The notes: generated from the sequence alone by a model not told the origin. A DNA stretch of 59,973 bases from a virus (IMGVR_UViG_3300017743_000009:1-59973); one strand, 5' to 3'; shown: positions 4,522 through 54,058, numbered from the stretch's first letter. Translations and numbers: made by a program.

Positions 4522-5347
4522 TAAAGTATTTATCTGTCACGAATCCATAGTTATCATTTGCACTAACACTATCTGTATTTATAGCAAGTGTGCTATTAGA
4601 TGTTGGGTTACCGTTAGCATCTAATCCAGGTGTTATAGTTATTCTAGAAGCAGGAGTAGAAATACTATTAATATTAAATACACCTGGTGCACCTGGGTCA
4701 ACATAAAATTGAGTATTTGCTTTTTTAATAAGACCTTTCTTATCTTCTACAGGACCAAATACATATCCTTTTATATCAAATCTTAAAGTATGAATAAGAG
4801 CTCTTCTTGATTCAAAATTACCTTCATAAGAATCTGAAGTATTTAAGCTTTGAAACACTACAGGTATATCAAAACCAAAATCTAATCCATCTATTAATTT
4901 AAGAGTAGCTGTAAACTCAGGAGTAAAATAAGGTAAAATTTGTTCTAATATTCTTACTCCATCTTCTGCATTTTTTACCATAATAGCTAATTCAAAACCT
5001 ATATTGAATGGAGTTGGTGTTCCAACACTAGACAAATTAAATGATTCATCTCTTTTAGCCTGTACTAAATCTCTCATAGGATTCATTCTACGCTCAGGAT
5101 CATACTGAAATGAAATCATCTCAAATGACATTCTCGGTAATTGAATCTGTATCTGTCTATCTAAATTAGGGTCTACATTTAATCTTTCAATAAATTTCTG
5201 TCTGGGACCATAAGAAACAGGCACACGCAAAGTCTGAATAGCATTACCTGATTCATCCTCTCTATCTATCTCTATGTTATTAAACAGAGTACCAAAGTAA
5301 ACTACATACTTTCTTATAACACCGTTGTAATATTTTTTACCAAACAT
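4514..5347 (-). CDS. gp15: Tail sheath stabiliser / tail terminator
   Basis: FGTLFNNI, VPVSYGPRQKF, LPRMSFE and EQILPYFTP motifs; synteny gp13-14-15-16-17. Confidence 0.95.
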   Translation of the reverse strand: MFGKKYYNGVIRKYVVYFGTLFNNIEIDREDESGNAIQTLRVPVSYGPRQKFIERLNVDPNLDRQIQIQLPRMSFEMISFQYDPERRMNPMRDLVQAKRDESFNLSSVGTPTPFNIGFELAIMVKNAEDGVRILEQILPYFTPEFTATLKLIDGLDFGFDIPVVFQSLNTSDSYEGNFESRRALIHTLRFDIKGYVFGPVEDKKGLIKKANTQFYVDPGAPGVFNINSISTPASRITITPGLDANGNPTSNSTLAINTDSVSANDNYGFVTDKYFNG

Positions 5348-6111
5348 TAAAAGTTATTCTCGCTAAATGGGTTGAACTCACTAAAGTCAATAAAGTCAGC
5401 CCCTTCATCTTGGAAGAAGGTTGAATCGTCATCTTTATCTTGAGTTCTTTTATCGTAGTTATCGTTTATAATTTCTTGACCAGATTCTGTAGTTAATGCT
5501 AATCCAGTTTCTAATGTTAGACCTTTTGCATCTAACAAGTATGATTGAGATCTATCTACCTCAATACTATCTACTTCCGGTATACCTGTACTAAATCTCT
5601 CATCTGAATATTCAAATGTTTCTAATGAAAGATCATAAGTTTGAAGATCACCTAATTGATAAAACATTTGATCATGCTTAACAAATTTTATTTCAAACAA
5701 TTTACCTATAGCGTTTTCAGTTGAACCTTTTATCCATGGTAAGAATATAAGATCTCCTTCTCTAGGTCTAGTTATATCAGGCTGAAACTCTTCTATCTCT
5801 TCGTTAAATCTTCTTCGTGCTATAGTAACATTCATCTGATCTTGAATAGTAAGACCAAATCTCTCCATAAAGGCGCCCTGTCCTTCATATCCCTCTACTG
5901 ACTTAATGTATAACTCTAAAGGGTAAGCTAATTCAAATTTAGATAATACAGCTTCTGAGTATAACTGATCTTGACTTACTTGATTTCTTGGTAGGTAAAA
6001 AGATGCTTGGCCATATATAGAAATAGCTTCTATAATAAGATCTTCTATTAAGCGAGATTCACCACTAGCTTCGTAGTTTTGAAAGTATGTTGATCTTCCT
6101 TGTATCGCCAT
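5347..6111 (-). CDS. gp14: Neck protein (head closure)
   Basis: LIEDLIIEAISIYG..YLPR, RPREGDLIFLP, LFEIKFV, FYQLG and DFSEFNPF motifs. Confidence 0.95.
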   Translation of the reverse strand: MAIQGRSTYFQNYEASGESRLIEDLIIEAISIYGQASFYLPRNQVSQDQLYSEAVLSKFELAYPLELYIKSVEGYEGQGAFMERFGLTIQDQMNVTIARRRFNEEIEEFQPDITRPREGDLIFLPWIKGSTENAIGKLFEIKFVKHDQMFYQLGDLQTYDLSLETFEYSDERFSTGIPEVDSIEVDRSQSYLLDAKGLTLETGLALTTESGQEIINDNYDKRTQDKDDDSTFFQDEGADFIDFSEFNPFSENNF

Positions 6112-18902: not shown

Positions 18903-19120
18903 TAACTTACCTCGCCACCATCAATACCACCTCTAGCAGATGCTACAGAAACAGGTGTAAAAGTATTTGAAGATGAATTATAGGCTAGTATTTCACCATT
19001 AGCAATAGTTTGATAATTAATATTTAACCCTGAAATATCATTTGTTGACGTTTGGTTTTTAATTATCTTAGTTACTATAGGTGTAGAAGTAGTCTGAATT
19101 GTTGCAACTGTATTAGCCAT
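18902..19120 (-). CDS. Small structural adaptor protein
   Basis: NGEILAYNSSSNTF fibre-knob motif; C-terminal IDGGE; translationally coupled on both sides. Confidence 0.6.
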   Translation of the reverse strand: MANTVATIQTTSTPIVTKIIKNQTSTNDISGLNINYQTIANGEILAYNSSSNTFTPVSVASARGGIDGGEVS

Positions 19121-19455
19121 TAGTATGAAATCTCCGGTGTTACGGTTACTTGGCCTTGCAATACTCTATTAATAGTTGAACCACCACCTAAAGAAACTTC
19201 AACATCATACATATAACGACCAGGCGGTATTGCACCTGTAACTGTGTTATTAGCTGATAGAGTTAAAATTCCATTTACTGGATCTGATGCAGATGCACTG
19301 ATTGAATATGATGTATTTGAAGACCAATGTTTACGTAACTTACAGTTTGCAGCATAGCCTGTTAAGTTAAATACTTCTCCATTAGCCTGTGTGACTGTTA
19401 CAGCCAGAGAAAAATCAGTACCTTTATCTATTATAATATTTGCGCGCGTAGCCAT
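19120..19455 (-). CDS. Virion structural protein with a BppU-like/Ig-like fibre attachment domain
   Basis: NIIIDKGTDF...FNLTGY...GRYMYDVEV...RVLQGQVTVTP pattern typical of marine T4-like structural proteins; RBS AGAGG. Confidence 0.65.
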   Translation of the reverse strand: MATRANIIIDKGTDFSLAVTVTQANGEVFNLTGYAANCKLRKHWSSNTSYSISASASDPVNGILTLSANNTVTGAIPPGRYMYDVEVSLGGGSTINRVLQGQVTVTPEISY

Positions 19456-21624: not shown

Positions 21625-21632
21625 TATTTATG
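21625..21632 (-). promoter_or_regulatory. Putative late promoter CATAAATA for the 138-aa/GT/oxygenase cassette
   Basis: NATAAATA box overlapping the TAA of the 1505-aa gene. Confidence 0.55.
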
Positions 21633-24600
21633 CAACTCTTAGCCATAATTTTATAGTAGAGTTATTTGAGGCTGTACCTTGAATAGTATCACCTGCAAAT
21701 TGACCCGTAAACTGAGATGAATAAGTAGATGTAAATTGCGGACCTGTTATTAATCTCGCGAATTGGTCTCCATTATATGATGGCCCTGGAGTCGTTCTAG
21801 CATACCCTACACTATAATTATCTCCTACTACTAACCTTGCAAATTGTCCTCTTGTATATTGAGGGCCAGGTGTAGTTCTAGAATACTGAGAGGTGTATTG
21901 AGGTCCTACTACAAGTCTAGCAAACTGGCCTCTAGTGTATTGTGGTCCAGGTGTAGTTCTAGCATAATTAACAGTGTAGTTTGGTCCAGTCACCAGTCTT
22001 GCATATTGACCGTCTGAGTAATTAGGGCCAGGTGTTGTTCTAGAGTAGCCAACACTATAATTAGGACCCGGTGTTATTCTAGCATATGCTCCATCTGAAT
22101 AATTAGGTCCAGGTGTTGTTCTGGCATAGTTAACTGTATATTGTGGTCCTGGTCTAGCTCTTGTATACTGACCGTCACTGTATGCTGGCCCTGGCGTCGA
22201 CCTAGCATAGTTAACTGTATATTGAGGACCTACTACAAGTCTTGCATATTGTGCAGAATAAATTCTTGTAAACTGTCCTGTATACTGCGCAGTAAACTGT
22301 CTTGTAAAAGATCTACCATAATTTACTGAATATATTCTAGCATATTGTCCTGTATATTGAGCTGTATATTGTCTATTAAATGCCCTTCCATAATTGGCGG
22401 AATATATTCTTGTATATTGTCCTGTATATTGGGCAGTAAATTGTCTGTTAAAGGATCTAGAATATGAAGCTGAAAAAATCCTAGTAAATTGCCTACTATA
22501 TTGTCCGGAATATATTCTAGCAAATGATCTTCCGTATCCTGCTGAGAATATTCTAGTAAATTGTCTGGCATATTGGCCAGCATAACTTCTTGCAAATGCT
22601 CTTCCATAATTAGCGGAATATATTCTGGCATATTGACCTGTGTATTGAGCTGTATATTGTCTATTGAATGATCTACCATAACCAGCTGAAAAAATCCTTG
22701 TAAATTGTCTAGCGTATTGGCCGTTATAAACTCTACCGAACGCTCTTCCGTACCCTGCTGAGTATATTCTTGTAAATTGTCTAGCGTACTGGCCGTTATA
22801 AACTCTACCAAAAGCCCTTCCGTATCCTGCTGAGTATATTCTTGTAAATTGTCTTGCATATTGACCATAATAGACCCTACCAAAAGACCTACCATACCCG
22901 GCTGAAAAGATTCTAGTAAACTGTCTTGCATATTGACCATAGTATACTCTACCAAAAGCTCTTCCGTATCCAGCTGAAAAGATTCTAGTAAATTGTCTTG
23001 CGTATTGACCATAGTATACTCTACCATAGTTAACTGCATAGTTAGGTCCTGGTCTTGATCTACCATAGTTACCATAATAGATTCTACCATAGTTAACAGT
23101 ATAGCCTACAGCATAGTTAGGACCTGGTCTAGATCTTCCATAGTTACCATAATAGATTCTACCAAACGATCTATTGTATTGGACACCATATGCTGGGCCC
23201 GGTCTTGCTCTATTATATGAACCATAGTACACTCTTCCAAACGATCTATTGTATTGGACACCATATGCTGGTCCAGGTCTAGCTCTATTATATGAACCAT
23301 AGTATACTCTTCCATAGTTTACAGTATAACTTGAAGAATAGTTTGGTCCTGGGCGTGATCTAGTAAAATTTCCTGAGTAAATATTAGCACCACCGGCCTG
23401 TCTATAGTAAGATGGTAATCTAGTAAACCCTTTATACTGACCACCTATAGGAGGGAAGCCACCAGCAGATGCGTAAATATTAGCAGAACGCGTGTAGATA
23501 GTGCCTCTATAATATTGACTGCCGCCGTCTTGGTCCGGGGGTGGAAAGAATGTTGGAGGTCCAAAATAAGGTTCTACTGGAGCACCATAACCGGTTCCAT
23601 ATCCACCTTCAAGCCTATCAGAATTATAATTAAAGTCAAATGCTAATCGTGAAAAATTAGCTCCAGCATAACTACCATAGTAAACTCTTCCAAAAGATCT
23701 CGAATAACTTACACCGTAAGCTGGACCTGGTCTTGATCTACCATAGTTACCATAATATACTCTACCATAGTTAACAGTGTATCCTACGGCATAGTTAGGG
23801 CCTGGTCTAGATCTTCCATAGTTACCATAATAGATTCTACCATAGTTAACAGTATACCCTACAGCATAGTTAGGGCCTGGTCTTGCTCTATTATATGAAC
23901 CGTAGTATATTCTTCCAAACGATCTGCTATACTGTACACCGTAAGCAGGTCCTGGTCTAGCTCTATTATATGAGCCAGTGTATACTCTACCATAATTGAC
24001 TGCGTACGCAGGTCCTGGTCTTGATCTTGTATATTGTCCATCACTATAATTAGGACCTGGTGTTATTCTGGCATAGTTAACTGTGTAATTAGGACCCGGT
24101 CTTGATCTTGTATACGACCCGTCCGAATAATTAGGCCCCGGAGTTGTTCTAGCGTAGTTAACTGTGTAGTTGGGACCAGGTCTTGATCTTGTATATTGTC
24201 CATCACTATAATTAGGTCCCGGAGTTGTTCTAGCATAGTTAACAGTATAATTAGGTCCTGGTCTTGATCTTGTGTATTGCCCATCACTGTAATTAGGACC
24301 AGGTGTAGTTCTAGCGTAGTTTACAGTATAATTAGGACCCGGTCTTGATCTTGTGTATGACCCATCTGAGTAATTAGGTCCAGGTGTAGTTCTTGCATAG
24401 TTAACTGTGTAGTTAGGCCCTGTAATTAATCTTGCAAATTGACCTCTAGTATACTGAGGACCTGGTGTTATTCTGGCATAGTTAACTGTATAGTTAGGAC
24501 CAGGTCTAGCTCTTGTATATGACCCGTCTGAATAATTAGGACCTGGAGTTGATCTTGCATAGTTAACAGTGTAATTAGGTCCAGGTGTTATTCTAGCATA

Positions 24601-26145
24601 GTTACCATCTGAGTAAGCTGGTCCTGGAGTTGCTCTTGAATATCCTGCAGAGTAATTAGGACCGACTACTAATCTGGCAAATTGACCTCTTGTGTATTGA
24701 GGTCCTGGAGTTGTTCTTGCATAGTTAACTGTATAGTTAGGTCCTGTAATTAATCTAGCAAATTGTCCTCTTGTGTATTGAGGTCCTGGAGTTATTCTTG
24801 CATAGTTGGCAGTATATTGGCTACCTACTACTAGTCTTGCAAATTGACCTCTTGTGTATTGAGGTCCTGGAGTAGTTCTAGAATAGCCTGATGTATATTG
24901 TCTAGTAAATTGTCTACCATATCCTGCAGAGAAAATTCTTGTAAATTGTCTAGCGTATTGGCCAGCATAACTTCTTGCAAACTGTCTTCCATATCCTGCT
25001 GAGAATATTCTAGTAAACTGTCTAGAATAATCGCCAGTAAATATTCTTGCAAATGCTCTTGTATATTGTGCAGAGAATATTCTAGTAAACTGTCTTGCGT
25101 AGTCACCGGTAAATTGTCTATTAAAAGCTCTTCCATAAGCTGCAGAGTATATTCTAGTAAACTGGCCTGTGTATTGAGAAGTATATTGCCTTGTAAACTG
25201 TCTACCGTATTGAGCAGAATATATCCTGGTGAACTGTCCAGTATATTGAGATGTAAATTGTCTATTAAAAGACCTAGTATATTGAGCTGTAAATGACCTA
25301 GCAAACTGTCTTGTATATTGAGCTGAGAATTGTCTAGTAAACTGTCTACTAAAGTTTCCAGTAAACTGATTAGAGTATTGTTGAGAAGTATTATCAGCTA
25401 CCTGATCGATTAGACTATCACTAACTTGTAACCATGTACCAGTTCCTGGAGCACTTACTTGTAGTTTATAAGTACCAACACCAGTAGCTACAATTCTATT
25501 TCTTAATCTTTGAGTTAATGATTTAATTTCAGCAGTAGACATCTGCTTAATAAGAGATCCATCTAACTTAACAGTAGGTATATTAGTATAACTTATTCCA
25601 TCATCTGTTTTACGATATAAATTATATGTTTGATTTGTTCCTGCATTATGAGTAATTGTATCAGTAACGGTCGCTTTGGTAGCCCAAGTCCCTCCAGAAG
25701 GTGCTGCGGTACCAAAATAATACTGCCCCGTAGCATAATTGGAAGTATTAGCTATTTTATCTAAGGCATATTTAATAATTGAATTATTTAAATCTGTATC
25801 TGTTTGTTCTTTTACTGAAGAACTAGAATAGCCTAACGGTCTTACTAAACCTGATTCAGATATAGCAGTAACATTTTGATAGAAGGTAGTTGTTACAGTA
25901 TTAGTAGATCCGGTTGCAGGATGAGTACCAATAGATTCTGTTCTTCTTGTATCAACGAAAGATCCTATAGAAGTTCCTGTAGTAATATTAAGATCACCTG
26001 TTACTACATTACTAGAGGCAAAATCTTCAAGTACAATATTAGTGACATAATCCATTTCTGCATTAGTCATTTCCTGCAGACCTGAGAAGTTAGTTGAGTT
26101 TACACTCGAACCACTACTAACTTTTATTTTTAATGGATTACTCAA
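21628..26145 (-). CDS. Giant aromatic/Arg tetrapeptide-repeat protein (predicted beta-hairpin fibre), 1505 aa, TTG start
   Basis: About 255-aa globular N-region, then about 1230 aa of [FY]xxx and [FY]xRxxPGPx repeats around a unique centre; ends KLWLRVA; paralogous to 26185..28653. Confidence 0.85.
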   Translation of the reverse strand: MSNPLKIKVSSGSSVNSTNFSGLQEMTNAEMDYVTNIVLEDFASSNVVTGDLNITTGTSIGSFVDTRRTESIGTHPATGSTNTVTTTFYQNVTAISESGLVRPLGYSSSSVKEQTDTDLNNSIIKYALDKIANTSNYATGQYYFGTAAPSGGTWATKATVTDTITHNAGTNQTYNLYRKTDDGISYTNIPTVKLDGSLIKQMSTAEIKSLTQRLRNRIVATGVGTYKLQVSAPGTGTWLQVSDSLIDQVADNTSQQYSNQFTGNFSRQFTRQFSAQYTRQFARSFTAQYTRSFNRQFTSQYTGQFTRIYSAQYGRQFTRQYTSQYTGQFTRIYSAAYGRAFNRQFTGDYARQFTRIFSAQYTRAFARIFTGDYSRQFTRIFSAGYGRQFARSYAGQYARQFTRIFSAGYGRQFTRQYTSGYSRTTPGPQYTRGQFARLVVGSQYTANYARITPGPQYTRGQFARLITGPNYTVNYARTTPGPQYTRGQFARLVVGPNYSAGYSRATPGPAYSDGNYARITPGPNYTVNYARSTPGPNYSDGSYTRARPGPNYTVNYARITPGPQYTRGQFARLITGPNYTVNYARTTPGPNYSDGSYTRSRPGPNYTVNYARTTPGPNYSDGQYTRSRPGPNYTVNYARTTPGPNYSDGQYTRSRPGPNYTVNYARTTPGPNYSDGSYTRSRPGPNYTVNYARITPGPNYSDGQYTRSRPGPAYAVNYGRVYTGSYNRARPGPAYGVQYSRSFGRIYYGSYNRARPGPNYAVGYTVNYGRIYYGNYGRSRPGPNYAVGYTVNYGRVYYGNYGRSRPGPAYGVSYSRSFGRVYYGSYAGANFSRLAFDFNYNSDRLEGGYGTGYGAPVEPYFGPPTFFPPPDQDGGSQYYRGTIYTRSANIYASAGGFPPIGGQYKGFTRLPSYYRQAGGANIYSGNFTRSRPGPNYSSSYTVNYGRVYYGSYNRARPGPAYGVQYNRSFGRVYYGSYNRARPGPAYGVQYNRSFGRIYYGNYGRSRPGPNYAVGYTVNYGRIYYGNYGRSRPGPNYAVNYGRVYYGQYARQFTRIFSAGYGRAFGRVYYGQYARQFTRIFSAGYGRSFGRVYYGQYARQFTRIYSAGYGRAFGRVYNGQYARQFTRIYSAGYGRAFGRVYNGQYARQFTRIFSAGYGRSFNRQYTAQYTGQYARIYSANYGRAFARSYAGQYARQFTRIFSAGYGRSFARIYSGQYSRQFTRIFSASYSRSFNRQFTAQYTGQYTRIYSANYGRAFNRQYTAQYTGQYARIYSVNYGRSFTRQFTAQYTGQFTRIYSAQYARLVVGPQYTVNYARSTPGPAYSDGQYTRARPGPQYTVNYARTTPGPNYSDGAYARITPGPNYSVGYSRTTPGPNYSDGQYARLVTGPNYTVNYARTTPGPQYTRGQFARLVVGPQYTSQYSRTTPGPQYTRGQFARLVVGDNYSVGYARTTPGPSYNGDQFARLITGPQFTSTYSSQFTGQFAGDTIQGTASNNSTIKLWLRVA
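21688..25377 (-). repeat. Mirror-ordered coding repeat array (24-aa, 27-aa and 25-aa super-repeats)
   Basis: Blocks: A 25377-24886, B 24885-23995, C 23994-23671, centre, C' 23367-23029, A' 23028-22249, B' 22248-21688. Confidence 0.9.
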
Positions 26146-28669: not shown

Positions 28670-31633
28670 CTACGCCGGCCAAGCAACCGATCCGTTAGCG
28701 TAATAAACCCTAAATGCATTGCCTCCTTCATCTTTAAGATCGCTATGAACACTTAAATCGCCTACTACGTTAGCTGATGAACTCATTGTTGCAGCTCCAG
28801 TAACACCTAAAGTACTTGATAGAGTTGCTGCGCCTCCTACTGCTAATGTTCCGTCTGCATCGATGCCAGAAGAAGTAATTGCTGTATTTACCGAACTAGT
28901 TCCTACAGTAATTTTTGTTGTTGATAAGTTGACGTTAGCGCCAATGTTTAATGTACTTGATATGTTTGCAATACCTGTAACAGAAGCACCACTTGTTGCA
29001 GTTAATAGTCCTGAGAAGTTACCTGTATTAGCTGTAATTACAAATCGTTTAGACGTTGTACCAAGTGTTTGGCCTACAGTATTAGATTTAGGAATAATTT
29101 GTGAACCAACTGCTATTGAAACTATATTAGCTGTATTAGCAAATAATTCGTATCGTTTTAAATTTGTTCCTAAAGGTACTCCATTAGCGCCTGGTATTAA
29201 TCCAACGGTTGTATTACCAACCGGTGCATATACAAATAAATTTTCAGTGCCTGAACCATTACCAATAGTAGTAGTACCATCTAAGGTTGACTCAGCTGAT
29301 ACTGATAAAGTTGTCATTGATGCTACATTCAATGATAAAGCTTGATTAGAAGATAAAGATGTTGAACCTTGAACTTCTAAATCACCAACAATAGTTACAT
29401 CATCATTAAATGTAGTATTTGGTGTAGCTGTTATTCCAGTATCTGTAATATATAATTCGCCTGATACTAAATTAGCTGTAGCACCAGTATGAACTATTGC
29501 TGACTTTAAAGTACCAAAAGTCATTGAACCTGTAATATCTGCATTACCACCTACGGTAATTTTACCACCTGATTCCATTGTGGTTGTAGCATTTACAAAA
29601 CCTGTTACTGTTGTGTTTCCTGCTGCTAAAGTTTTACTGAATATAGAATTGTCTGCTACTGTTATTGAATCTTGGAACGTAGCATTACTTTGAACTTCTA
29701 ATCTATTATTAAGATCTAGAATACCAGTTACATTTAATCCACCGCTTACATTTAATGTACTTGATACGTTAGCTATACCAGTAACTGTTAAACCTTTCTT
29801 AAGAGTTGATAATCCATTTGCAGTAAATGTATTACTTGTAGCTAAAGCACCTGTAAATGTTCCAGTATTAGATCCTGCTACTGCTCCAGTTACTCCTAAC
29901 TGACCAGAAAGAGATCCTCCTACTGCTTGTATATTTCCATCGGCATTTATATTACCGCTATCATCTATAACTACATTAGTAGATGCGTCACCAACAGTTA
30001 TTTGCCCGGCGTTTAATTCTACATTACCTACAACTACATTTGAGGATACTATAGTATGTCCTGCTATATCTGTATTACTTCCACTTAAAGTAGAGACTCC
30101 ACCAACAGTTAAAGTACCACCTGTTGATATAGTTGTTGATGTTAATTTTGAATTTGATGCATTGTTACCTACTGCTATGCTATTATTAGATAACTTAACT
30201 TTAGTATTTGCTGAACCAACATGAATAGCAACTGAAGCATTTGCTGTACCTGTTACTATTAAATTACTTTTAGCTCTTAATAATCCACCTACATTTGCTG
30301 CTGTAGTAAATACTGCATTTCCTGCGACAGTTAAAGTGTTACTAAATGATACAGAATTAGTAACTGCTAAGGTATTACTTAGAGTAGTTGCCCCAGTAAC
30401 ACCTACTGTATTACTGAAAGTGGCTGTATTTGTTACCGCTAAAGTATTACTTAAAGTAGCTGCACCTGTAACTGTGATAGTATTACTAAATGTAGCTGTA
30501 TTAGTTACAGCAATAGTATTACTAAATGTTCCTGCTCCTACTACATCAAGTGTATTACTAAAATCGCCTGTACCTGTAACTAGTAATGTTTTGCTTACGT
30601 TTATATCTTCTGCATTAACATCCCATCTTGCATTTGTAGCACCAAGAACTTTAGAGTTGGATGTAGGTATTATATTAGTATCAACTTTACCATTAATAGA
30701 AATAGTATCTGCAGATGCATTACCTAAGTCTACATCAGAAGCAAACGTTGCATTCCCTGTTACTGATAGTGTGTTTGATACACTTACTGTATTACTATTA
30801 AGGTTCCATCTAGCGTCTGTTAGACCAAGGGACAATGCATTAGATACAGGATTTAAACCAGTATCTGCTTCAGAGTTAAACGAAACAGTATCAGAGTTTG
30901 CACTACCTAATATTACATTAGCATTAAATAAAGATTCATCTGAATTAACTGTTAATAAGTTTCCAGATAAAGTAAGATTTGCTTCTGTGCCGTCTCCATT
31001 TAAATCTAAGACAGTTGTAGATCCATCAGCTTTAACTGTTATGTCATTAGCGGTTAAAGTAATATCGTTATAATCAGCTGTTAGAGCAGTACCGTCCATA
31101 TCAACGGTTGCTGAATTAATATCAAAAGTTGTTCCAGTTACATGAGTAGCAGTAGAGTTAAGAGAAGTATTAGAAGACGTACTGTTAATATGTACATCAC
31201 CTTTAATTTGAAGTAAGCTGTTATTTACAAATACGTTTGTTGTTTGTATATCAGTATAAGCACCTTTTATTCTTACCGTATTAGTAGTAGACTGAGAAGC
31301 AACATTAATTGTATCGCCTAGTATATTAGTATTAGATGTTATAGAAAGAGTATTAGATGCTTGAACATTACCACCTCTAAGACCATCTAAAGCAGCTACA
31401 GTATTAGCTTGAATAATACCACCAGTTGAACTAACCCAGGCAGATGTATCTTGATTATAAACGTTAGAAGTAATAACAACGTTACCAGAAGTAGAACCAC
31501 CAACTGTATTCTGTTGGGCAGTAACCACAACTTCTGACATATCAAATACTATTTGGTTGGTTCTATCTACCCATGCTCCAAAAGTATCTGTCTGAGTTGC
31601 TACATTAGCGGATTTGTATTTACGTTCAGCCAT
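28670..31633 (-). CDS. Long tail-fibre/whisker-like protein (987 aa)
   Basis: N-terminal TDTFGAWVDRTNQ anchor motif; beta-helix-like T/S/N-rich repeats; P....LG....RW fibre motifs; C-terminal VYYANGSVAWP. Confidence 0.7.
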   Translation of the reverse strand: MAERKYKSANVATQTDTFGAWVDRTNQIVFDMSEVVVTAQQNTVGGSTSGNVVITSNVYNQDTSAWVSSTGGIIQANTVAALDGLRGGNVQASNTLSITSNTNILGDTINVASQSTTNTVRIKGAYTDIQTTNVFVNNSLLQIKGDVHINSTSSNTSLNSTATHVTGTTFDINSATVDMDGTALTADYNDITLTANDITVKADGSTTVLDLNGDGTEANLTLSGNLLTVNSDESLFNANVILGSANSDTVSFNSEADTGLNPVSNALSLGLTDARWNLNSNTVSVSNTLSVTGNATFASDVDLGNASADTISINGKVDTNIIPTSNSKVLGATNARWDVNAEDINVSKTLLVTGTGDFSNTLDVVGAGTFSNTIAVTNTATFSNTITVTGAATLSNTLAVTNTATFSNTVGVTGATTLSNTLAVTNSVSFSNTLTVAGNAVFTTAANVGGLLRAKSNLIVTGTANASVAIHVGSANTKVKLSNNSIAVGNNASNSKLTSTTISTGGTLTVGGVSTLSGSNTDIAGHTIVSSNVVVGNVELNAGQITVGDASTNVVIDDSGNINADGNIQAVGGSLSGQLGVTGAVAGSNTGTFTGALATSNTFTANGLSTLKKGLTVTGIANVSSTLNVSGGLNVTGILDLNNRLEVQSNATFQDSITVADNSIFSKTLAAGNTTVTGFVNATTTMESGGKITVGGNADITGSMTFGTLKSAIVHTGATANLVSGELYITDTGITATPNTTFNDDVTIVGDLEVQGSTSLSSNQALSLNVASMTTLSVSAESTLDGTTTIGNGSGTENLFVYAPVGNTTVGLIPGANGVPLGTNLKRYELFANTANIVSIAVGSQIIPKSNTVGQTLGTTSKRFVITANTGNFSGLLTATSGASVTGIANISSTLNIGANVNLSTTKITVGTSSVNTAITSSGIDADGTLAVGGAATLSSTLGVTGAATMSSSANVVGDLSVHSDLKDEGGNAFRVYYANGSVAWPA
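30308..30560 (-). repeat. Seven tandem 12-aa repeats SNT(L/I/V)xVxxxx(T/S/V)(F/L)
   Basis: SNTLDVVGAGTF SNTIAVTNTATF SNTITVTGAATL SNTLAVTNTATF SNTVGVTGATTL SNTLAVTNSVSF SNTLTVAGNAVF. Confidence 0.85.
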
Positions 31634-31877
31634 CTATTTTTCCTAATAACTGTACTAGCATTGATTTAATTTCATGACAGTCTTTGCTTTGAGATTTAAT
31701 CTCAGTTTTCATTTGCAAGACATCAATTTCCAATTTATCAATTCTAGAAAGCTTTTCATTTAATTTTTTCTTTTTAGCCTTATAAGCCTGTAATGCTTCT
31801 ACATTAGTATTTAGCACCGCTCCACTATAATTATCTTTAACTAAGAAAGGAACATCTGTTTTATTTATTCTTTCCAT
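31626..31877 (-). CDS. Small conserved coiled-coil protein following the VrlC-like gene
   Basis: LVKDNYSGAVLNTN motif and C-terminal EIKSMLVQLL, seen at this position in marine T4-like phages. Confidence 0.7.
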   Translation of the reverse strand: MERINKTDVPFLVKDNYSGAVLNTNVEALQAYKAKKKKLNEKLSRIDKLEIDVLQMKTEIKSQSKDCHEIKSMLVQLLGKIDG

Positions 31878-33925
31878 TATAAGCTTAACGCAATAGCTCT
31901 CATATCTGCTATTCTAGGTACTTTATTTGTAGTTTCTGATAGTAGTATTAATTTTATTTGGAAGAAAGCAAATGTTTCATGCTCTGCTCCTGCGCTATCA
32001 AAATATCTTAACTTAACTGTTCCATCACCTTGAGGATAAGCTACAGCAGATTGTTTTTCATCTGCATTAACTTTATAATGAAGCCCGGCTGAGAATGTTT
32101 TATCCGCTACTGTATCTAAAACAACAGCTGTTGTATTAGCAGATGCTATTCTACCTAATACATAATTATTTTTTATACCATCAGTAACAATTATTAGATC
32201 ACCAGCATTATAATATGTACTTGCAGAAGCAATAGCTACTGTTGTACTACCACTTGTGGTGTTTGCAGTACCAGTTTGTTTGTTGGTACCGTCTATTGTA
32301 GGAATAGATGGAATAGTAAATTTAAATTCTCTAAAGTCATTAGCTGAATCATTAGAACTAAATAAGTTAACTTGCTCTGGAGAAATAGCCATTTCAGTCC
32401 ATTGCTTATCAATTAATTTATCAGAATCATCTAAAGCCGTAACCATACAGTATGCTTTAATATCTGTATTAGCCGGTCTATATCCTGTAACATATACAGC
32501 AAGATCATCAGCATCTAACCCAGATGCTAACTGAACAGTTTTAGAAAGATATCTAGAAGTAGAAGCCCCTAGGCCGAATAATTTTTCATTTGTATAATCG
32601 TTATTAATTAAATTTTGATATGATTGTACTAAACTTACTTCTGGATCTGATATAGGTGAAACATTTTCATTAGTAGTTTTTAGCGTTTGTGTAATAACTA
32701 GTGACTTCTTACCACCACCAACTATCTCATTTGATTTACTAAATACTGCGCCTTCATAACTAAAAACTTTATTTGATACACCACTTATAAGCTGACTAGA
32801 AGATTGATTATCTAAGTTCGCTGATTCAGAAATTTTAAAATTTGCAGTTATGGTTGATCCTGTTGGCTCAGTTTTATATACAAATGGTTGAAAGTTATTT
32901 ACTACTCGATTATCTACAGAAGTAATTGCAGCATTAGCTGCTGAAATTGTACCTTTAATAACATCATTATTAGCAAAATAAGACCCGCTTATAGCTGTTG
33001 AATCTTTTAAAGTAATTTGTGTTATAGTAGCGTTTGAAAAAACTTTTTGTACTCTACCTGTCGGTACTTTAGCTGCTTTACCAATAGTTATTCCTACTCT
33101 TGGAGCTCCTAAAACTGTTAAAGATGTATCACTTTCTACAGATTTGACTTCTAGTACATCAGCAATATCAAAATTTGAAGTCTGTCGTACTGCTATTGAA
33201 TCTCCAGCAGCATAATCAGATGTAAAGGTTGTACCTGTTCCTACTACGGTTGAACTAGTTTTAGTTAGAGCTACATTTCCTGCTGCAAAAGATGAAGGTA
33301 CTTTATATACCTCTTCATCATTCCTAAAAGTTCCTGATAAATTATTAATAGTAAAAAATTCTAAATCTCTATTTGTTAAAGTAACAGTACCTGTCTTTTT
33401 AGCATTAAATACACTTTTGTACATTCTAAACTTAAGATCAGCATCTAAACGAGGCTCCCAAGTATCAGAAGCAGAAACAAATAATACACCATCACCCCAT
33501 GTTGAGTTAATTGGTGATCCAGATACTACGTCATTTTCACCTTTCTGAGCAAACCAAATTCTATAATCTGGAGAACCTGCGTCAGGTCTAATACATACTG
33601 CATACTGCATACCTGATTTTAAAAAAACAGGTCCAGGAAAAACTACTCTTGTAGGAGTAGCACCAGTTGAAGATACAGCTACTTCTTTTGATAGAAGATG
33701 CTTTTTACTAAATTGTAAAACCTTTTTAGAAGGGTATCCATTTTTTACTTCTCTTATATCAACATTAATACCATACTTAGCATCTTTCTTTTGAAAAAAC
33801 AAATCTACAGATGACATATATAAGCCGTCTGAATCGGGACAGTGTTCGGGTAAAATCCTAAAAGTTTGCGCAATAGGATCGTCGTTTAGACTACTCTTAT
33901 TATACCATTTATTAGTTGCGCCCAT
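31877..33925 (-). CDS. C-terminal part of a DUF4815/VrlC-like virion protein
   Basis: DPIAQTF, SSVDLFFQKKD, GYPS, DLKFRMY and terminal FQIKLIL...VPRIADMRAIAL; has its own RBS AGGAG. Confidence 0.8.
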   Translation of the reverse strand: MGATNKWYNKSSLNDDPIAQTFRILPEHCPDSDGLYMSSVDLFFQKKDAKYGINVDIREVKNGYPSKKVLQFSKKHLLSKEVAVSSTGATPTRVVFPGPVFLKSGMQYAVCIRPDAGSPDYRIWFAQKGENDVVSGSPINSTWGDGVLFVSASDTWEPRLDADLKFRMYKSVFNAKKTGTVTLTNRDLEFFTINNLSGTFRNDEEVYKVPSSFAAGNVALTKTSSTVVGTGTTFTSDYAAGDSIAVRQTSNFDIADVLEVKSVESDTSLTVLGAPRVGITIGKAAKVPTGRVQKVFSNATITQITLKDSTAISGSYFANNDVIKGTISAANAAITSVDNRVVNNFQPFVYKTEPTGSTITANFKISESANLDNQSSSQLISGVSNKVFSYEGAVFSKSNEIVGGGKKSLVITQTLKTTNENVSPISDPEVSLVQSYQNLINNDYTNEKLFGLGASTSRYLSKTVQLASGLDADDLAVYVTGYRPANTDIKAYCMVTALDDSDKLIDKQWTEMAISPEQVNLFSSNDSANDFREFKFTIPSIPTIDGTNKQTGTANTTSGSTTVAIASASTYYNAGDLIIVTDGIKNNYVLGRIASANTTAVVLDTVADKTFSAGLHYKVNADEKQSAVAYPQGDGTVKLRYFDSAGAEHETFAFFQIKLILLSETTNKVPRIADMRAIALSL

Positions 33926-33933
33926 TTATTCTC

Positions 33934-36900
33934 CTATTTCAAGTGCTCTCTACTAGCACTTGTATGACGTGTCTTACCACCGCCGCCACCGGTTATAGCA
34001 TCTGCTGCCTTAGATCCGGTACCAGTAGTTGATTCACCACCTTCTGTTAAAATTATAATATCGTTATTTGTGTATGGATAGTAAGCTGTATTACTTGTAT
34101 CCTGACCACCAGTATCTGGTAATAGAAGGTTTTCATGATAGTATTCATCCCACCACCAGTTATAAGCATAGCTGTTAGTAATTGTGATATCAATATCTAC
34201 ATCAATAGTTTGTTCTTCAAAAGTAGACTCAGATGAACTAATATCAAAAGTAGGTTGCCTTGTAGTTACAGTTATACTCTCTTTTTCCACGCTATAGTTA
34301 TATGCATTATAAGTATCAGAAGCTGTTGAGGTAGCTGAACTTAAATTAGTTAATGAATTAACATCTGCTATAACTAATTGCCTATCCCCTACTAAGAATG
34401 TTTCTTTAGGTAAATCAAAGAGTGCTTTTAATACTCCATACTCATCAGTCGTGACTGCATCTCCGTAATCACCAAATCGATATACGTATTTAGGTTTATC
34501 TAATAACGTATATGTAGGTAGAGAAATAGCAGCAATACTTCCAGGTGCTACGTTAGCATTAATATCAGTATTATCAAAATAGAAATAATGCTGTGTATCT
34601 GGTCTTAAACCAGTAGCTATTACTCTTATTCTTTTAGGTCTCATAAATGGTGAGAATGAAACATCAGTAACAAAATCGCCAACTGGTGAGGTTGAATTTT
34701 CATACCCCATAGAAAGTTGCTGAGTAGTTTTTAAATATGTGTCTGTAGTTGCCGTTGTTGTGGTTGTTACAGCTGTCTCTGTAGTTATACTGTAAGGATT
34801 ATAATACTTACCACCCCACCAGTCTCCATGATAGCCTCCATAGTAACCACCATAACTTCCATAGTAATTATTCCAGGCATTGTAACCACCGTAACCCCAG
34901 TAACCATAATGCTTGAAGGTAGTATCTGTAGTTACTTCAGTCTCTGATTGAACATCTGTTGAAGTACCAATCTTTTCTATATTAGTTCTGGTTAATGGGT
35001 AAAACTCATTAAGGTTATCTAAAAGGTCATTCATACCTGCTGAACTATCAACAAATATATCTTTAGTTCCTACGACAGTTTCATCATAACCAGAATCATA
35101 AGTTGGGTTCATTTTAATTTTACCCTTAAACTTAAAGAAACTTTCTGTACATGGTCTGTGATTTGTAGCTACTCTTTGCTCCATTATAATTGATTCTGTA
35201 GCGCTCATAACATATGCACCGTCTAACTCAATTACATTATTAGTGTTAGCTACAATTAAATCAATATCTTCTTTTCTAAATCTAGGAACAAATTCAGTAG
35301 CAGTAGGATCTATACCTATACTAAACTCTCTGTTGTCTACATCAGAAGTATTAAAGTCAGTAGCTGGATCTACTAAAATACCATTTTTAAATCTGTCATT
35401 ACCATTTGAATCAGTAATAGCCATATTTTGAGTTTTTTGCTCAAGCATTGAAAGCGTAGTATAATATTCTAAATTTTTAAGACGTTTTTCAAATTTACCA
35501 ATCTCTTTCATTGTATAACGTCTAATATTTTCTGGAGTAATAGATATTGATTCGTTTCGTCTTGAAGTACCTCTTGCTTCTTTAGATGTTAGAGAAGGAA
35601 AAGGAGGAACAACTATTGTACCAAGATTTAATGCACCTGGCATATCTTGAGGAGGAACAGGTCTTGAAGAAGGTGTACCTCTTTTAGTTGTTAAATACCC
35701 TTGCTCATTAAGAGCTATTTTATCTATTCTACCTAAGTAGTAGTTAAAATCAGTCTCAAATATTTGATTAGGAGCTGCAGTGAAGTGCTCTATGCTTCCA
35801 AAAGATTCTGTTTCAGCCGGGTTTGTAGATGCACCGCTTGCTGTAGAAGCAACATTTGCTGTATTAGCAACTTGTGGTCTAACATCAATTAAATTTCTTA
35901 GATCCCCTCTTAATCCATTAGGGCTCTCGTATACTGGAATCTCTGTAATAGGTAAATCATCAGTTCCATTAGTATCTTTAAAACTTGAAATAGAATAAAA
36001 TCCTTTACCATCTGCTGGTGAGTCAGCCTGCATAACTGTTGCTTTAACTAATATTCTATTTGAGGTGGTAAGATTAGTTCCTGATTTAACACTTAACTTA
36101 GATAGCCCGTAATGAGTTTCAAATACGTTCTTTTCTAACTCATACCCTGATTTATTATCTGGATTGCTTTCACTAAAATTAGTACCTACATAAACATTAT
36201 CAATAGATACAACATCTGGTAAACCTAAACTATATGGACCATTATTTGTAGTACCATGGGTGTTACAATTTATTTTTATGAATACTTGTTTCTTAGTCTT
36301 TTTAATAGGTGCAACATTTGTTTTCTTTTCATTATGTACTACAACAAAGGATGTACTTGTTATAGGGCTTCCTACTGCACCTGATAAGTTAATTGTAGCT
36401 GAGCTACCAGAAACTGTTATAGCAACATCATCAAGATTAATAGGTACATTATTAGCAAGTCCACCATGTGAGCCACCACCCAGAGTTGGATAAATTACCC
36501 AGTCTTTCTTTTGACTATTAGATAAAGTTCCTGAATAAGGAAATACACCTGTTACTGCACTTACAGTAAATGTATTAGAAGTAGCAGTAGTTTGTTGCTG
36601 AGTTCTAAAAATAAAATTAGAACCTGAAGTTGATTTAACTGAGGGACTAGGTATTGCAAAAACACCAGGTAGTAAATTTTTCTCTTTAATGACTGCTCTA
36701 GAATTTTCTAATACAACATCACCAGTACCTTTGTTATTTAAATGTACTGATCTAGTATTCCTAAATGCTTTACCAGCACTCATTTTAATATTAAATATGT
36801 ATAGTTTATATTGAGCTTTAGCTGTACCCTGTACTCCATCGTTATACTCAAATGCTCTTACACTTGCTGTACCTATTTGATTACCAGGAGCAACACCTAA

Positions 36901-38136
36901 GTTATCTCCATCACTAACAGAAGTACCAGCAGTGTCTCTTAATGATACTGTAGCTACTGTATTAGCAGCAAATGATCCTACTACTTGATCAAGCACCAAA
37001 TAGTTACCCATATTAAAGGTAATATATTCTCCTGTTGCGCTTGCAGATGCTGATGCTTTTTGAATAGCTATTCTAGTAGTATTAAATTGTTCTTGTCTTC
37101 TTCCATTTACATAATGAAGACCAGGTCCGATTAATAAATTAAAGTGAGAACTATTAGCAGTTTCAGCTTGCATTTCATTTACTTTAACTGTATAGTTGCC
37201 TGATTCTTCAAATGTTCTTGAAGCCATTTCATCATTAATAACATTATATTGTGTAGTTAATTTTTTAGATATGGGTAATCCATTCTGAAAATCCATAACT
37301 GCAAGGAAGTTAGCATTTGATCTTGCGTCTTGAGTAGGTATTGCTGTAAGGAATGGATTTAATTTTAATCTATCTGCGCCAGGAGCGTTCTCATTATTAT
37401 ATCCTGAAGCGTTATCTAATAATGTTGTATCACTATCTGAAGTAACTATTGATTCAGCTACATCAAAACCAATTGATACATTATCTGGTTTATTAGAATA
37501 TTTAGAAGCTACTACAGTATTAGATGATACTCTTAAAAAATGTCCTTTTGAATAAACAATACCTTCTGAAACTTTAACTGCATAACCTTGGCCAACAGCT
37601 GTAGCAGAATCAGTAACTTCTGAACCTGCAATAGTTAATGTAGTATTATTATATAATGACCCGCTATCGAAAGATGTGTTACTATGTACTTCTACTGTTT
37701 CTGTTGTAGTAAATGTCTTAGCACTACTTACCCCTGTGGTTAGGTAATCAATATATAGAGTAGTTAAGTTAGGGTCCTGAGATACAAGACCGTCTGCGTA
37801 TGCTACAATTTGAGCTGTTACATTTGAAACTGTACCTTTGGCATATAAGGTTAGATATGTAGATGGTGCAACTGGTTGTCCATCAACCTGCAGATCAGAA
37901 ACTTTAACATAATCAAAAGCTGGGTCAAGAGTAATAGAACAACCTTCAATAATTGTTCCTTCTTTATAGATATTATTACCAAACCTCTCTACTTGGTTTT
38001 GTAATATAGTTTGAAGCTGAGTAAGTTCCCTTGCTTGTAATGCTACGGCTGGTTTAAAAAGTACTCTCTGGAACTTTTTATCTTCATCGTAATCATCGTA
38101 ATATGGACTTACGTTGAAATTTGTATCTAAACTCAT
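33934..38136 (-). CDS. DUF4815/VrlC-like large virion (baseplate-peripheral) protein, N-terminal part
   Basis: NFNVSPYYDDY, RVLFKP..ALQARELTQLQTILQNQVERFG, APGADRLK, RTFEESGNY, RYTMKEIG..EKR..NLEYYT.LS.LE, RFKNG..VD. Confidence 0.88.
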   Translation of the reverse strand: MSLDTNFNVSPYYDDYDEDKKFQRVLFKPAVALQARELTQLQTILQNQVERFGNNIYKEGTIIEGCSITLDPAFDYVKVSDLQVDGQPVAPSTYLTLYAKGTVSNVTAQIVAYADGLVSQDPNLTTLYIDYLTTGVSSAKTFTTTETVEVHSNTSFDSGSLYNNTTLTIAGSEVTDSATAVGQGYAVKVSEGIVYSKGHFLRVSSNTVVASKYSNKPDNVSIGFDVAESIVTSDSDTTLLDNASGYNNENAPGADRLKLNPFLTAIPTQDARSNANFLAVMDFQNGLPISKKLTTQYNVINDEMASRTFEESGNYTVKVNEMQAETANSSHFNLLIGPGLHYVNGRRQEQFNTTRIAIQKASASASATGEYITFNMGNYLVLDQVVGSFAANTVATVSLRDTAGTSVSDGDNLGVAPGNQIGTASVRAFEYNDGVQGTAKAQYKLYIFNIKMSAGKAFRNTRSVHLNNKGTGDVVLENSRAVIKEKNLLPGVFAIPSPSVKSTSGSNFIFRTQQQTTATSNTFTVSAVTGVFPYSGTLSNSQKKDWVIYPTLGGGSHGGLANNVPINLDDVAITVSGSSATINLSGAVGSPITSTSFVVVHNEKKTNVAPIKKTKKQVFIKINCNTHGTTNNGPYSLGLPDVVSIDNVYVGTNFSESNPDNKSGYELEKNVFETHYGLSKLSVKSGTNLTTSNRILVKATVMQADSPADGKGFYSISSFKDTNGTDDLPITEIPVYESPNGLRGDLRNLIDVRPQVANTANVASTASGASTNPAETESFGSIEHFTAAPNQIFETDFNYYLGRIDKIALNEQGYLTTKRGTPSSRPVPPQDMPGALNLGTIVVPPFPSLTSKEARGTSRRNESISITPENIRRYTMKEIGKFEKRLKNLEYYTTLSMLEQKTQNMAITDSNGNDRFKNGILVDPATDFNTSDVDNREFSIGIDPTATEFVPRFRKEDIDLIVANTNNVIELDGAYVMSATESIIMEQRVATNHRPCTESFFKFKGKIKMNPTYDSGYDETVVGTKDIFVDSSAGMNDLLDNLNEFYPLTRTNIEKIGTSTDVQSETEVTTDTTFKHYGYWGYGGYNAWNNYYGSYGGYYGGYHGDWWGGKYYNPYSITTETAVTTTTTATTDTYLKTTQQLSMGYENSTSPVGDFVTDVSFSPFMRPKRIRVIATGLRPDTQHYFYFDNTDINANVAPGSIAAISLPTYTLLDKPKYVYRFGDYGDAVTTDEYGVLKALFDLPKETFLVGDRQLVIADVNSLTNLSSATSTASDTYNAYNYSVEKESITVTTRQPTFDISSSESTFEEQTIDVDIDITITNSYAYNWWWDEYYHENLLLPDTGGQDTSNTAYYPYTNNDIIILTEGGESTTGTGSKAADAITGGGGGKTRHTSASREHLK

Positions 38137-50904: not shown

Positions 50905-51345
50905 ATGGCGTATAAAGGTAAATTTAAACCTATTAACTATTACAAGTATTTAGGTAACCCTACAAATATTATTTATCGAAGTCTATGGGAATGTAAGCTA
51001 ATGTCCTATTTAGACAGGCATAATGATGTAATAGGATGGGCAAGTGAGGAGATAGCAATCCCATATCGTAGCCCTTTAGATGGAAGAAAGCATAGATACT
51101 TTCCTGATTTTTATGTAAAAAGAAAAATAGGGAGCAGTATTAAAGAATCTTTAATTGAAGTAAAACCATATAAACAGACAATGCCGCCTAAAATAACTAA
51201 AAGTAAATCCCCTACTAAAAAGTATTTAAATGAGGTTAGAGCTTGGGGTGTTAATGAGGCTAAATGGAACGCAGCTACTGAATATTGTAAAGATAGAGGC
51301 TGGGATTTTAAAATAATGACCGAGAATGAACTAGGGATCAAATAA
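50905..51345 (+). CDS. gp4: Head completion protein (TnsA-like nuclease fold)
   Basis: MAYKGKFKP.N..KY.GNP.NI.YRSLWE, W.SEE..IPY, HRYFPDF, IEVKP, N.AKW.AA. Confidence 0.95.
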   Translation: MAYKGKFKPINYYKYLGNPTNIIYRSLWECKLMSYLDRHNDVIGWASEEIAIPYRSPLDGRKHRYFPDFYVKRKIGSSIKESLIEVKPYKQTMPPKITKSKSPTKKYLNEVRAWGVNEAKWNAATEYCKDRGWDFKIMTENELGIK

Positions 51346-52753: not shown

Positions 52754-52769
52754 ATAATGGAGAAAAATA

Positions 52770-53513: not shown

Positions 53514-53529
53514 GCCATACGGACTTAGG
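53482..53529 (+). promoter_or_regulatory. Predicted -1 programmed ribosomal frameshift signal
   Basis: Internal SD GAGGG (53482-86); slippery T TTT TTT (53495-53501); 7-nt spacer; hairpin CCTAAGCC-ATAC-GG(A)CTTAGG (53509-53529). Confidence 0.75.
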
Positions 53530-54050: not shown

Positions 54051-54058
54051 GAAAATAA

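Follow-up and report, generated by a model that had tools for sequence, protein, structure and literature searches.

The stretch of DNA analysed here (the window; IMGVR_UViG_3300017743_000009, 59,973 bases over its full length) is an IMG/VR virus record with an estimated completeness of 34%. On its minus strand lie genes for a T4-type baseplate hub and wedge, together with several fibre genes, a large terminase gene and a sheath gene. Among the fibre genes, flanked by baseplate wedge genes and sheath/terminase, lies an intact single open reading frame of 1505 codons at 21628-26145, whose product of 1505 amino acids (aa) is called P0001 below. The frame opens with TTG, which AAGGA precedes by 10 nucleotides (nt) and an in-frame TGA by two codons, and this start is the position at which relatives open with M-x-N-P-L-K. 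Since the window combines a T4-type gene set with a terminase 57-60% identical to those of T4-like cyanophages, the phage is, judged from its genes, an uncultured marine T4-like myovirus. P0001 is rich in Tyr (195), Gly (178), Arg (156) and Thr (155) and has only 2 His and 3 Met. Behind its N-terminal domain (N-domain), it consists of two long arms of short repeats that covary in mirror order around a non-periodic centre.

Repeat blocks of P0001 and their mirror-order covariation

The repeats are arranged in blocks in the order A-B-C-centre-C'-A'-B' (Table 1). The spacing of aromatic residues (4 in A and A', 9-5-9-4 in B and in aa 1300-1474 of B', 9-4-4-4-4 in C and in C') confirms this order as well as the four-residue units of the A-type blocks and the 9+5+9+4 composition of the B-type blocks, all of which had been proposed in an earlier reading of this DNA (the original prediction). 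Each block-B repeat contains two PGP and one DG or RG. With each 9-mer taken as two registers and each 5-mer as a single one, the total is 133 registers for the N-terminal arm (N-arm; 569 aa, 37 extra residues) and 135 for the C-terminal arm (C-arm; 564 aa, 24 extra residues). The totals given previously, 133 and 134, are therefore right for the N-arm and one short for the C-arm, where one boundary unit was assigned differently. Both arms contain 71 basic residues, with net charges of +62 and +65, and the whole protein carries about +127. At the DNA level, Tandem Repeats Finder reports periods of 81, 72 and 75 nt with 69-91% matches (the 81-nt period at 24010-24807, the 72-nt period in A'), so that the repeat copies have diverged. 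The centre is presumed to be the distal tip.

Table 1. Positions in the window of the P0001 gene and its parts, of the adjacent paralogue and of the downstream genes; "opposite" refers to the proposed pairing of the arms.
Feature	Residues	Position	Strand	Remarks
Whole gene P0001	1505 aa	21628..26145	-	TTG start, stop codon 21628-21630
N-domain module 1	aa 1-99	25849..26145	-	module homology by hhalign; boundaries by eye
N-domain module 2	aa 100-188	25582..25848	-	RPL..., helix, GGTW...D, short hairpin, YNLYRK; boundaries by eye
N-domain module 3, first part	aa 189-256	25378..25581	-	GTW (236-238)...D at end, putative outgoing strand of extended hairpin
Block A	aa 257-420	24886..25377	-	41 four-residue units, 24-aa super-repeat; opposite B'
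Block B	aa 421-717	23995..24885	-	11 x 27 aa (9+5+9+4); opposite A'
Block C	aa 718-825	23671..23994	-	25-aa repeats, 26 registers; opposite C'
Centre	aa 826-922 (97 aa)	23380..23670	-	non-periodic, Pro/Gly/aromatic-rich
Block C'	aa 923-1035	23041..23379	-	25-aa repeats, 27 registers
Block A'	aa 1036-1299	22249..23040	-	11 x 24 aa; opposite B, reverse order
Block B'	aa 1300-1486	21688..22248	-	half repeat, 6 x 27 aa, three 4-residue units; opposite A, reversed
Return strand	aa 1487-1505	21631..21687	-	...TIKLWLRVA, would complete module 3
Adjacent paralogue P0003	822 aa	26185..28653	-	N-domain, centre and ...TLWLRVA end as in P0001
Downstream gene 1	138 aa	21162-21578	-	
Downstream gene 2	282 aa	20339-21187	-	
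Downstream gene 3	279 aa	19503-20342	-	

We divided the arms into 17 repeats of A-type (24 aa) and 17 of B-type (27 aa) and paired them as in a hairpin, that is A1 to A6 with B'6 to B'1 and B1 to B11 with A'11 to A'1. With this mirror order, the distance matrices of the A-type repeats and of their B-type partners were strongly correlated (Mantel r 0.86), a value reached by none of 100000 free shuffles and by none of 100000 shuffles within blocks, whereas the parallel order gave -0.06. Sliding the B/A' pairing by 1-3 repeats lowered r from 0.89 to 0.28 or less. The claim that the arms covary in reverse order is thus borne out by the shuffle test.

The covariation can be read as a pairing code in which Asp in the B-type 5-mer goes with Arg in unit 4 of the A-type repeat, and Arg in the 5-mer with Gly. 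This code, reported before for 11 of 11 and 6 of 6 pairs, holds in 17 of the 17 repeat pairs of P0001, and in 35 of 36 once an orthologue from another IMG/VR contig (L002) is added, the exception being a YSGPL variant opposite Arg. Given the compositions, an exact match would arise by chance once in 330 cases for B/A' and once in 15 for A/B'. In C/C', RS-type units stand opposite VN-type units in four out of four cases, again as claimed. The proposed facing of YTRARPGP and FARS-YAGQ is less strict: RARPG lies opposite FARS-YAGQ in 3 of 5 pairs, and in L002 it is also found opposite FTRI-YNGQ and YGRV-YYGQ. A DNA palindrome as the origin of the mirror order was ruled out, as the P0001 gene contains no long one (its longest inverted repeat is 29 nt at 72%).

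The same relation is found at the level of single residues. For 36 pooled repeat pairs (P0001 and L002), we determined which A column shares the most information with each variable B column. The best partners run backwards: B column 2 couples to A column 24, columns 9, 11 and 12 to 15, column 14 to 12, column 15 to 11, column 16 to 10 or 8, columns 18-20 to 8, column 23 to 4, and columns 25 and 27 to 2. The two column numbers add up to about 26-27, creeping up as the three extra B residues accumulate, and four weaker B columns fall off this anti-diagonal. Over the 17 variable B columns, the Spearman correlation is -0.77, which none of 2000 column-label shuffles reached; P0001 alone gives -0.67 (21 of 2000 shuffles) and L002 alone -0.56 (12 of 2000). 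Unit 1 of an A-type repeat accordingly faces YTVN, while the second 9-mer lies opposite units 2-3, the 5-mer opposite unit 4 and the first 9-mer opposite units 5-6, in agreement with the unit-to-unit facing described in the original prediction. These anti-diagonal partners therefore show that the relation is antiparallel inside the repeats as well as between them.

Natural variation in L002 follows the same order. This orthologue (L003 is an identical copy) is cut at its 5' end and its N-domain is 91% identical to that of P0001, but it has 13 B and 13 A' repeats instead of 11 and 11. Its two extra R-type B repeats are matched by two extra G-type A' repeats, the variants reading RRRR DD RR x DDDD in B and, backwards, GGGG RR GG R RRRR in A'. 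Its mirror r is 0.81, reached by none of 50000 within-block shuffles, against 0.33 in parallel order. Moreover, the A6/B'1 pair, which is FARS-YAGQ with RARPG in P0001, is FTRQ-FTGQ with RLVTG in L002, so that both members of the pair have changed although about 900 residues separate them.

The protein family and its arm lengths

By searching 1.84 billion proteins with a profile of four N-domains, we found 460 cluster representatives (clusters at 50% identity) at E <= 0.001, 366 of them at E <= 1e-10, and P0001 aligns across the whole family N-domain. A homologue search with aa 1-256 that was limited to near lengths had given no match, and a protein-atlas search with the N-domain returned best scores of 0.76 and 0.75, below the useful level. 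Among 50,697 GenBank phage records, the sole relative is in Phage C48C1. No PHROG matched the N-domain, P0003 or the short members P0056, P0031 and P0020, and no Pfam family matched P0001, P0003 or the short member P0049; for P0001, Pfam gave no hit at E <= 1, hence no repeat-family model (beta-solenoid, G5) and no fibre model. The N-domain profile likewise found no match among PDB sequences (none at E <= 0.4).

Among the best 150 listed representatives, complete proteins range from 273 to 1490 aa; where a source name is given, it is "hypothetical". The family layout is an N-domain ending in GTW..G...DTR, followed by [YF]xGx-type units and then by G.T[IV]......LW.R.A. The C-terminal ...[LIV]W.[RK].A ending, TIKLWLRVA in P0001, is present in 119 of these 150 representatives. 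In the shortest member, P0056 (273 aa), there is almost nothing between the anchor strands, and many members carry the tight-turn motif Y.[LRV]YYGG or variants of it. The centre domain was discarded as a family marker, being found in P0001, L002, P0003 and a paralogue at locus L004 only.

Arm lengths were compared in the same 150 representatives, 119 of which are complete, 36 with exactly one turn motif. The N-arm minus the C-arm was within 4 aa of -8 in 27 of the 36, with 17 sharing one modal value, whereas 2.3 would be expected by chance if the motif sat anywhere in the insert. Over arm lengths of 21-150 aa, the two arms correlate with r 0.999. In a second, separate sample from IMG/VR, 80 loci gave 57 distinct complete proteins; a single turn motif occurs in 33 of these, and in 30 of the 33 the difference lay between -7 and -11. 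Among the long members, one of 1376 aa has its single turn-motif match flanked by 571 and 573 aa, a midpoint that is only rough because the match lies inside a non-periodic centre of about 100 aa and not at a tight turn; another, of 1247 aa, is off by 105, which corresponds to a centre domain of about 110 aa after the motif. The arms of short members differ in length by multiples of 4 aa rather than of 24. Mirroring extends to irregular units of 5-7 aa, 19 of 22 of which have a counterpart equally far from the turn, against 8.2 in shuffles (none of 2000 reached it). This result comes from the 8 proteins, among 27, in which both arms contain such units; 17 have none. Homologues had been put forward as a check on whether the arms change in pairs, and both the 13+13 repeats of L002 and the equal arms of the family (27/36 and 30/33) show that they do. 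As far as sequences can tell, selection keeps the arms equal in length across the family.

The proposed hairpin fibre and competing folds

The family alignment (A3) reveals three homologous modules in the N-domain (hhalign E values of 3.7e-15 for modules 1 and 2, 4.9e-15 for 1 and 3, and 4e-26 for 2 and 3). The repeated hairpin module noticed earlier in this region is thus real, but there are three copies where two had been seen. AlphaFold2 modelled the 316-aa member P0049 from a 72-sequence alignment with a mean predicted local distance difference test score (pLDDT) of 94.8 and a predicted template modelling score (pTM) of 0.85, as three strand-strand-helix-strand-hairpin repeats. Its last hairpin is formed by strand 238-270, G271-G272 and strand 273-314, which runs to the C-terminal LWLR, with pLDDT of 79-84 in the distal part of this hairpin and above 93 elsewhere; contacts in the models were deduced from secondary-structure strings, not from coordinates. 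P0049 is therefore predicted to form a two-stranded hairpin closed by its C-terminal strand. In the model of P0003, the last strand (810-820) is also placed as a strand, at pLDDT around 60. The return strand of P0001 was assigned from these two models and from the conserved end of the listed family, and the earlier claim that TIKLWLRVA closes a GTW...D copy agrees with both the conservation and the P0049 model. Foldseek with the P0049 model, thus with a short member only, returned nothing at E <= 0.001 from PDB and BFVD; the best of its non-significant rows, with E 0.2-2 over about 90-100 columns, were long hairpins from the stems of pore-forming toxins and from ring proteins.

The shuffles, the paired changes in homologues and the P0049 model support the antiparallel out-and-back pairing inserted in an N-domain hairpin that the original prediction had put forward. 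Two further lines of evidence, unavailable to that prediction, are the anti-diagonal coupling of single residues and the equal arms throughout the family. We consider it very likely that the two arms, as their sequences suggest, pair antiparallel, and have good confidence that they do so within one molecule. The complete proposal, a giant out-and-back beta-hairpin fibre made by extension of the module-3 hairpin, is likely. From its gene context and its presence in viral-fraction metagenomes, P0001 is probably a virion fibre. Whether the paired ribbon is extended rather than coiled is a closer call, with a slight preference for the extended form.

According to this proposal, aa 1-256 would form three tandem modules of about 88 aa with a beta-hairpin at the end of each, that of the third module being hugely stretched. 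The chain would exit after GTW...D (aa 236-247), run outwards through A, B and C (133 registers) to the 97-aa centre, and return antiparallel and in register through C', A' and B' (135 registers), with ...TIKLWLRVA closing module 3. Each 24-aa A-type repeat would lie opposite one 27-aa B-type repeat with three extra residues, probably accommodated as bulges at the DG/RG and PGP sites, and complementary facing residues (Arg-Asp, Gly-Arg) would fix the register. The resulting two-stranded ribbon would have ladders of Tyr and Arg on both faces instead of a hydrophobic core, the aromatic position 1 alternating on one face with Arg, Gly or Ala at position 3. The PGP prolines, at i and i+2 on one strand edge, could cap a free edge. 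The net charge of about +127 would keep the ribbon stiff, extended and soluble, and could draw it to anionic cell surfaces. The N-domain would anchor the protein to the baseplate or to another fibre, and the centre would be the distal tip. At 0.33 nm per residue, the extended length would be about 175 nm, which is an upper bound. Because short members do without a tip domain, one may speculate that the Tyr-rich ribbon is itself an adhesive surface.

Three other folds have to be weighed against the extended hairpin. The paired ribbon could be coiled or supercoiled with about one 24/27-aa super-repeat per turn, for instance as a two-start antiparallel solenoid, so that the rod would measure a few tens of nm. 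Beta-solenoid coils usually have a range of residues per coil that includes 24-27 aa, into which the strict super-repeats fit; the B-type strand, three residues longer per repeat, resembles the outer strand of a curved ribbon, and each repeat has three Gly/Pro turn-like sites. However, each A-type repeat covaries with one B-type repeat, r dropping from 0.8-0.9 to 0.37 or less at a shift of one, while a coil in a two-start solenoid would touch two. The prolines of PGP at i and i+2 would presumably block hydrogen bonding along one edge, the 4-aa steps in arm length of short members do not suit a 24-aa turn, P0049 is predicted with straight strands, and the high net charge disfavours compaction. 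Taken together, we regard the coiled form as unlikely. It is more improbable still that the N-arm pairs with the C-arm of another chain, in a domain-swapped dimer or higher oligomer in which the N-domain of the partner is completed. This arrangement would produce the equal-arm rule and the covariation with i+j=constant just as well, it would avoid the kinetically demanding in-register folding of a 565-residue hairpin in one chain, and phage fibres are usually oligomers (as stated in the accessible part of PMC12143355). Against it, the tight turn of short members (motif YYGG and similar) falls exactly midway, AlphaFold2 closes the P0049 hairpin within one chain at high confidence (pLDDT 94.8), a single chain already makes a pseudo-trimer of three modules in the N-domain, and the centre would need to pair with itself.

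The least credible of the three, to which we give hardly any weight, is an ordinary repeat fibre folded locally as a beta-solenoid or parallel trimer, with the mirror order a by-product of repeat evolution, of mis-assembly or of chance. Short-period Gly/aromatic repeats are indeed common in fibrous proteins, and short-read contigs do not bridge the repeat region. But stacking of successive repeats predicts no dependence between distant mirror sites, and such dependence was found in a mirror correlation that 100000 shuffles did not reach and in the residue-level anti-diagonal signal; moreover, the arms change together in L002 and are equal family-wide, the gene has no palindrome, and mis-assembly would break rather than make a mirror code that holds in 17 of 17 pairs. 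We know of no mutational process that duplicates protein repeats in mirror order.

Several observations weigh against the extended hairpin fibre. Structure prediction, suggested at the outset as a check, gave a continuous two-stranded hairpin for P0049 but was uninformative for the long arms: P0003 (822 aa, 10 sequences) was modelled with pLDDT of 35.5 overall and about 25 in both arms, so that any geometry proposed for the pairing of A-type and B-type repeats is putative. A complex prediction of B (421-717) with A' (1036-1299) scored 0.00 and gave no answer either way. A regular strand does not usually contain two PGP in every 27 aa, and we know of no solved precedent for a two-stranded ribbon of more than 100 nm without a hydrophobic core. 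P0001 and L002 are orthologous, so their 36 repeat pairs are non-independent, and the variants are strongly linked within repeats. A test of mirror similarity in composition among 41 long members was uninformative: it found mirror above direct order in 24 of them, and was negative for P0001 because unlike repeats face each other there. A palindromic block order suspected by eye in L043 is for this reason not put forward. The turn-motif test covered 36 of 119 complete proteins and left nine outliers of the 36, explained by false anchor or motif matches or by domains inserted in the arms. In two of 27 proteins, irregular units occur in the C-arm only. The arms of P0050 are unequal by 8 aa where its close relative P0163 shows the usual difference; the 90% cluster of P0050 includes a relative with eight more C-arm residues. 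Finally, one contig of run X7 joins 24676 and 24839, skipping 162 nt or exactly two B repeats, with no matching A' skip listed; either repeats were collapsed by the assembler, or the contig represents a real variant whose arms do not match.

If the extended hairpin fibre is real, it would be a natural rod-like beta structure that lacks a hydrophobic core and whose register is written in a readable pairing code (such as Arg/Asp, Gly/Arg or RSRPGP/FGRV-YYGQ), and thus a ready system for the study and design of long beta-hairpins. Its repeat arrays would grow only by compensating changes at two distant mirror sites, and the natural variants with 11+11 and 13+13 repeats already show such paired growth. 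It would come in arm sizes from about 20 to more than 550 residues among uncultured marine T4-like phages, at a cost of about 1500 residues compared with several thousand for a trimeric long tail fibre. It is possible, although we would not count on it, that these proteins represent a new class of fibrous protein, a one-chain, core-less two-stranded beta-ribbon of more than 100 nm with Tyr/Arg ladders and matched mirror duplications, serving as a cheap long-reach tether or adhesive line.

Known fibres, gene neighbourhood and distribution

The statement that no described phage fibre has this architecture was too strong, since the tip of T4 gp37 is a six-stranded antiparallel needle (accessible part of PMC9659904), about 150 x 25 Å in size and about 15 nm long (accessible part of PMC3004832). 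Both proteins are fibre elements of T4-like phages with antiparallel strands along the axis and a distal head at the turn of the chain. As Bartual et al. reportedly described in 2010, each of the three gp37 chains runs out and back. However, gp37 is a homotrimer whose needle is C-terminal, whereas P0001 has its arms of about 565 aa on an N-terminal location, and its hairpin grows from a single-chain three-module domain. The core of the gp37 needle holds iron bound by His at His-x-His sites, a feature not found in P0001 with its two His in 1505 aa. With the P0049 model, Foldseek listed a T4 protein 37 fragment at E 0.77 and a template modelling (TM) score of 0.11, and no PDB sequence matched. 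The gp37 needle is the nearest topological precedent, but a partial one, short and trimeric.

Very long two-stranded hairpins that emerge from a globular domain are also known in the stems of beta-pore-forming toxins (anthrax protective antigen, aerolysin, lysenin) and in flagellar LP-ring proteins, but these have 30-50 residues per arm and occur only as staves of oligomeric barrels in a membrane or ring, and none shows homology to the P0049 model at E <= 0.001. As variable-length extended rods, SasG/Aap, a monomeric and highly extended beta rod (accessible part of PMC4458895), and the "Periscope" surface proteins, in which repeat number sets the projection of a binding domain (accessible part of PMC8201768), work much like the proposed fibre. 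These are linear strings of domains that a single duplication lengthens, whereas the P0001 chain would be folded back on itself, and its rod could therefore change in length only by matched changes at two mirror sites. Phage fibres are generally homotrimers attached by their N-termini (PMC12143355, accessible part). P0001 resembles canonical trimeric fibres (triple beta-helix, beta-spiral, coiled coil) in gene position, variable length and a conserved N-terminal anchor. A parallel trimer does not, however, predict mirror covariation, the threefold N-domain of P0001 lies within one chain, and its family matches no fibre model in Pfam or PHROG. We found no description of the family or of a two-stranded ribbon phage fibre in the literature, in which subscription papers were only partly covered; as far as we found, the architecture is undescribed for phage fibres.

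The relative in Phage C48C1, CDS0201 (OQ984149.1, Kyanoviridae; L001 7989-18032), is a "hypothetical protein" of 3347 aa with 33% identity in the N-domain. It shares a ...YTLYVRVA end and aromatic repeats of 4 and 8 residues, but differs by at least five globular inserts between its repeat blocks; its topology may be one hairpin with side domains or several hairpins. Within it, about 70 aa (KTRHRSYLYY...SGQY) are exactly duplicated in tandem. Tail-fibre genes adjoin the family gene in the window, in C48C1, where an annotated tail assembly chaperone gene is adjacent as well, and at locus L015.

In P0003, the N-arm is A-type (219 aa) and the C-arm PGP-rich and B-type (240 aa), and the two paralogues also lie side by side in L004. 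By tblastn, the genes for the 138-aa and 282-aa proteins come after the family gene, in this order, in 72 of 83 loci, and that for the 279-aa protein is present in 70 of 83. None of the three matched a Pfam or PHROG family. Together with the fibre gene, they look from their conserved order like a four-gene cassette, in which they may encode assembly or adaptor partners. The proposed fibre architecture and the cassette are widespread in marine viral metagenomes, the N-domain profile finding at least 460 clusters. Because neither Pfam nor PHROGs nor the PDB includes the family, and a single one of 50,697 deposited phage genomes carries it, models of host range for ocean myoviruses miss it completely.

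The P0001 gene or part of it was found in 20 rows from 14 studies, mostly marine viral metagenomes, and a near-identical gene in 15 runs at half or more of the sampled words. In three DNA runs, contigs covered 30 of 30 bins of the gene; they are fragmented and none bridges the repeats, so the assembly of the array rests on the record. Contigs from an RNA library covered 25 of 30 bins, which does not demonstrate transcription. A short family member had a sole match among 185,579 species genomes, at 5001-5975 of an 11.4-kb contig (L087, PCAT01000109.1) in a Balneola metagenome-assembled genome. This is probably a phage contig binned into that genome, too weak a link to name a host.

Other genes on the minus strand of the window also have fibre or structural features. 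A 987-aa protein rich in Ser, Thr, Asn and Gly (28670-31633), with many short ...SNTL.VTG.A.FS... repeats, matches a PHROG tail-fibre family only weakly (3e-06) and no Pfam family at all, and is another fibre. Two adjacent proteins of 682 and 1400 aa (31877-38136) match different parts of the 2056-position profile of phrog_358, whose function is unknown; they may derive from one giant structural protein by splitting or duplication. A 111-aa protein encoded three genes below the cassette (19120-19455) matches phrog_1084 and phrog_3304 (L-shaped tail fibre assembly) and, below threshold, Pfam BppU_N and LtfC, which makes it a possible fibre chaperone or adaptor. Lastly, the coding strand switches at about 50900, genes at 50905-56431 being on the plus strand and the rest of the window on the minus strand, and both GC and AT skew reverse sign there.

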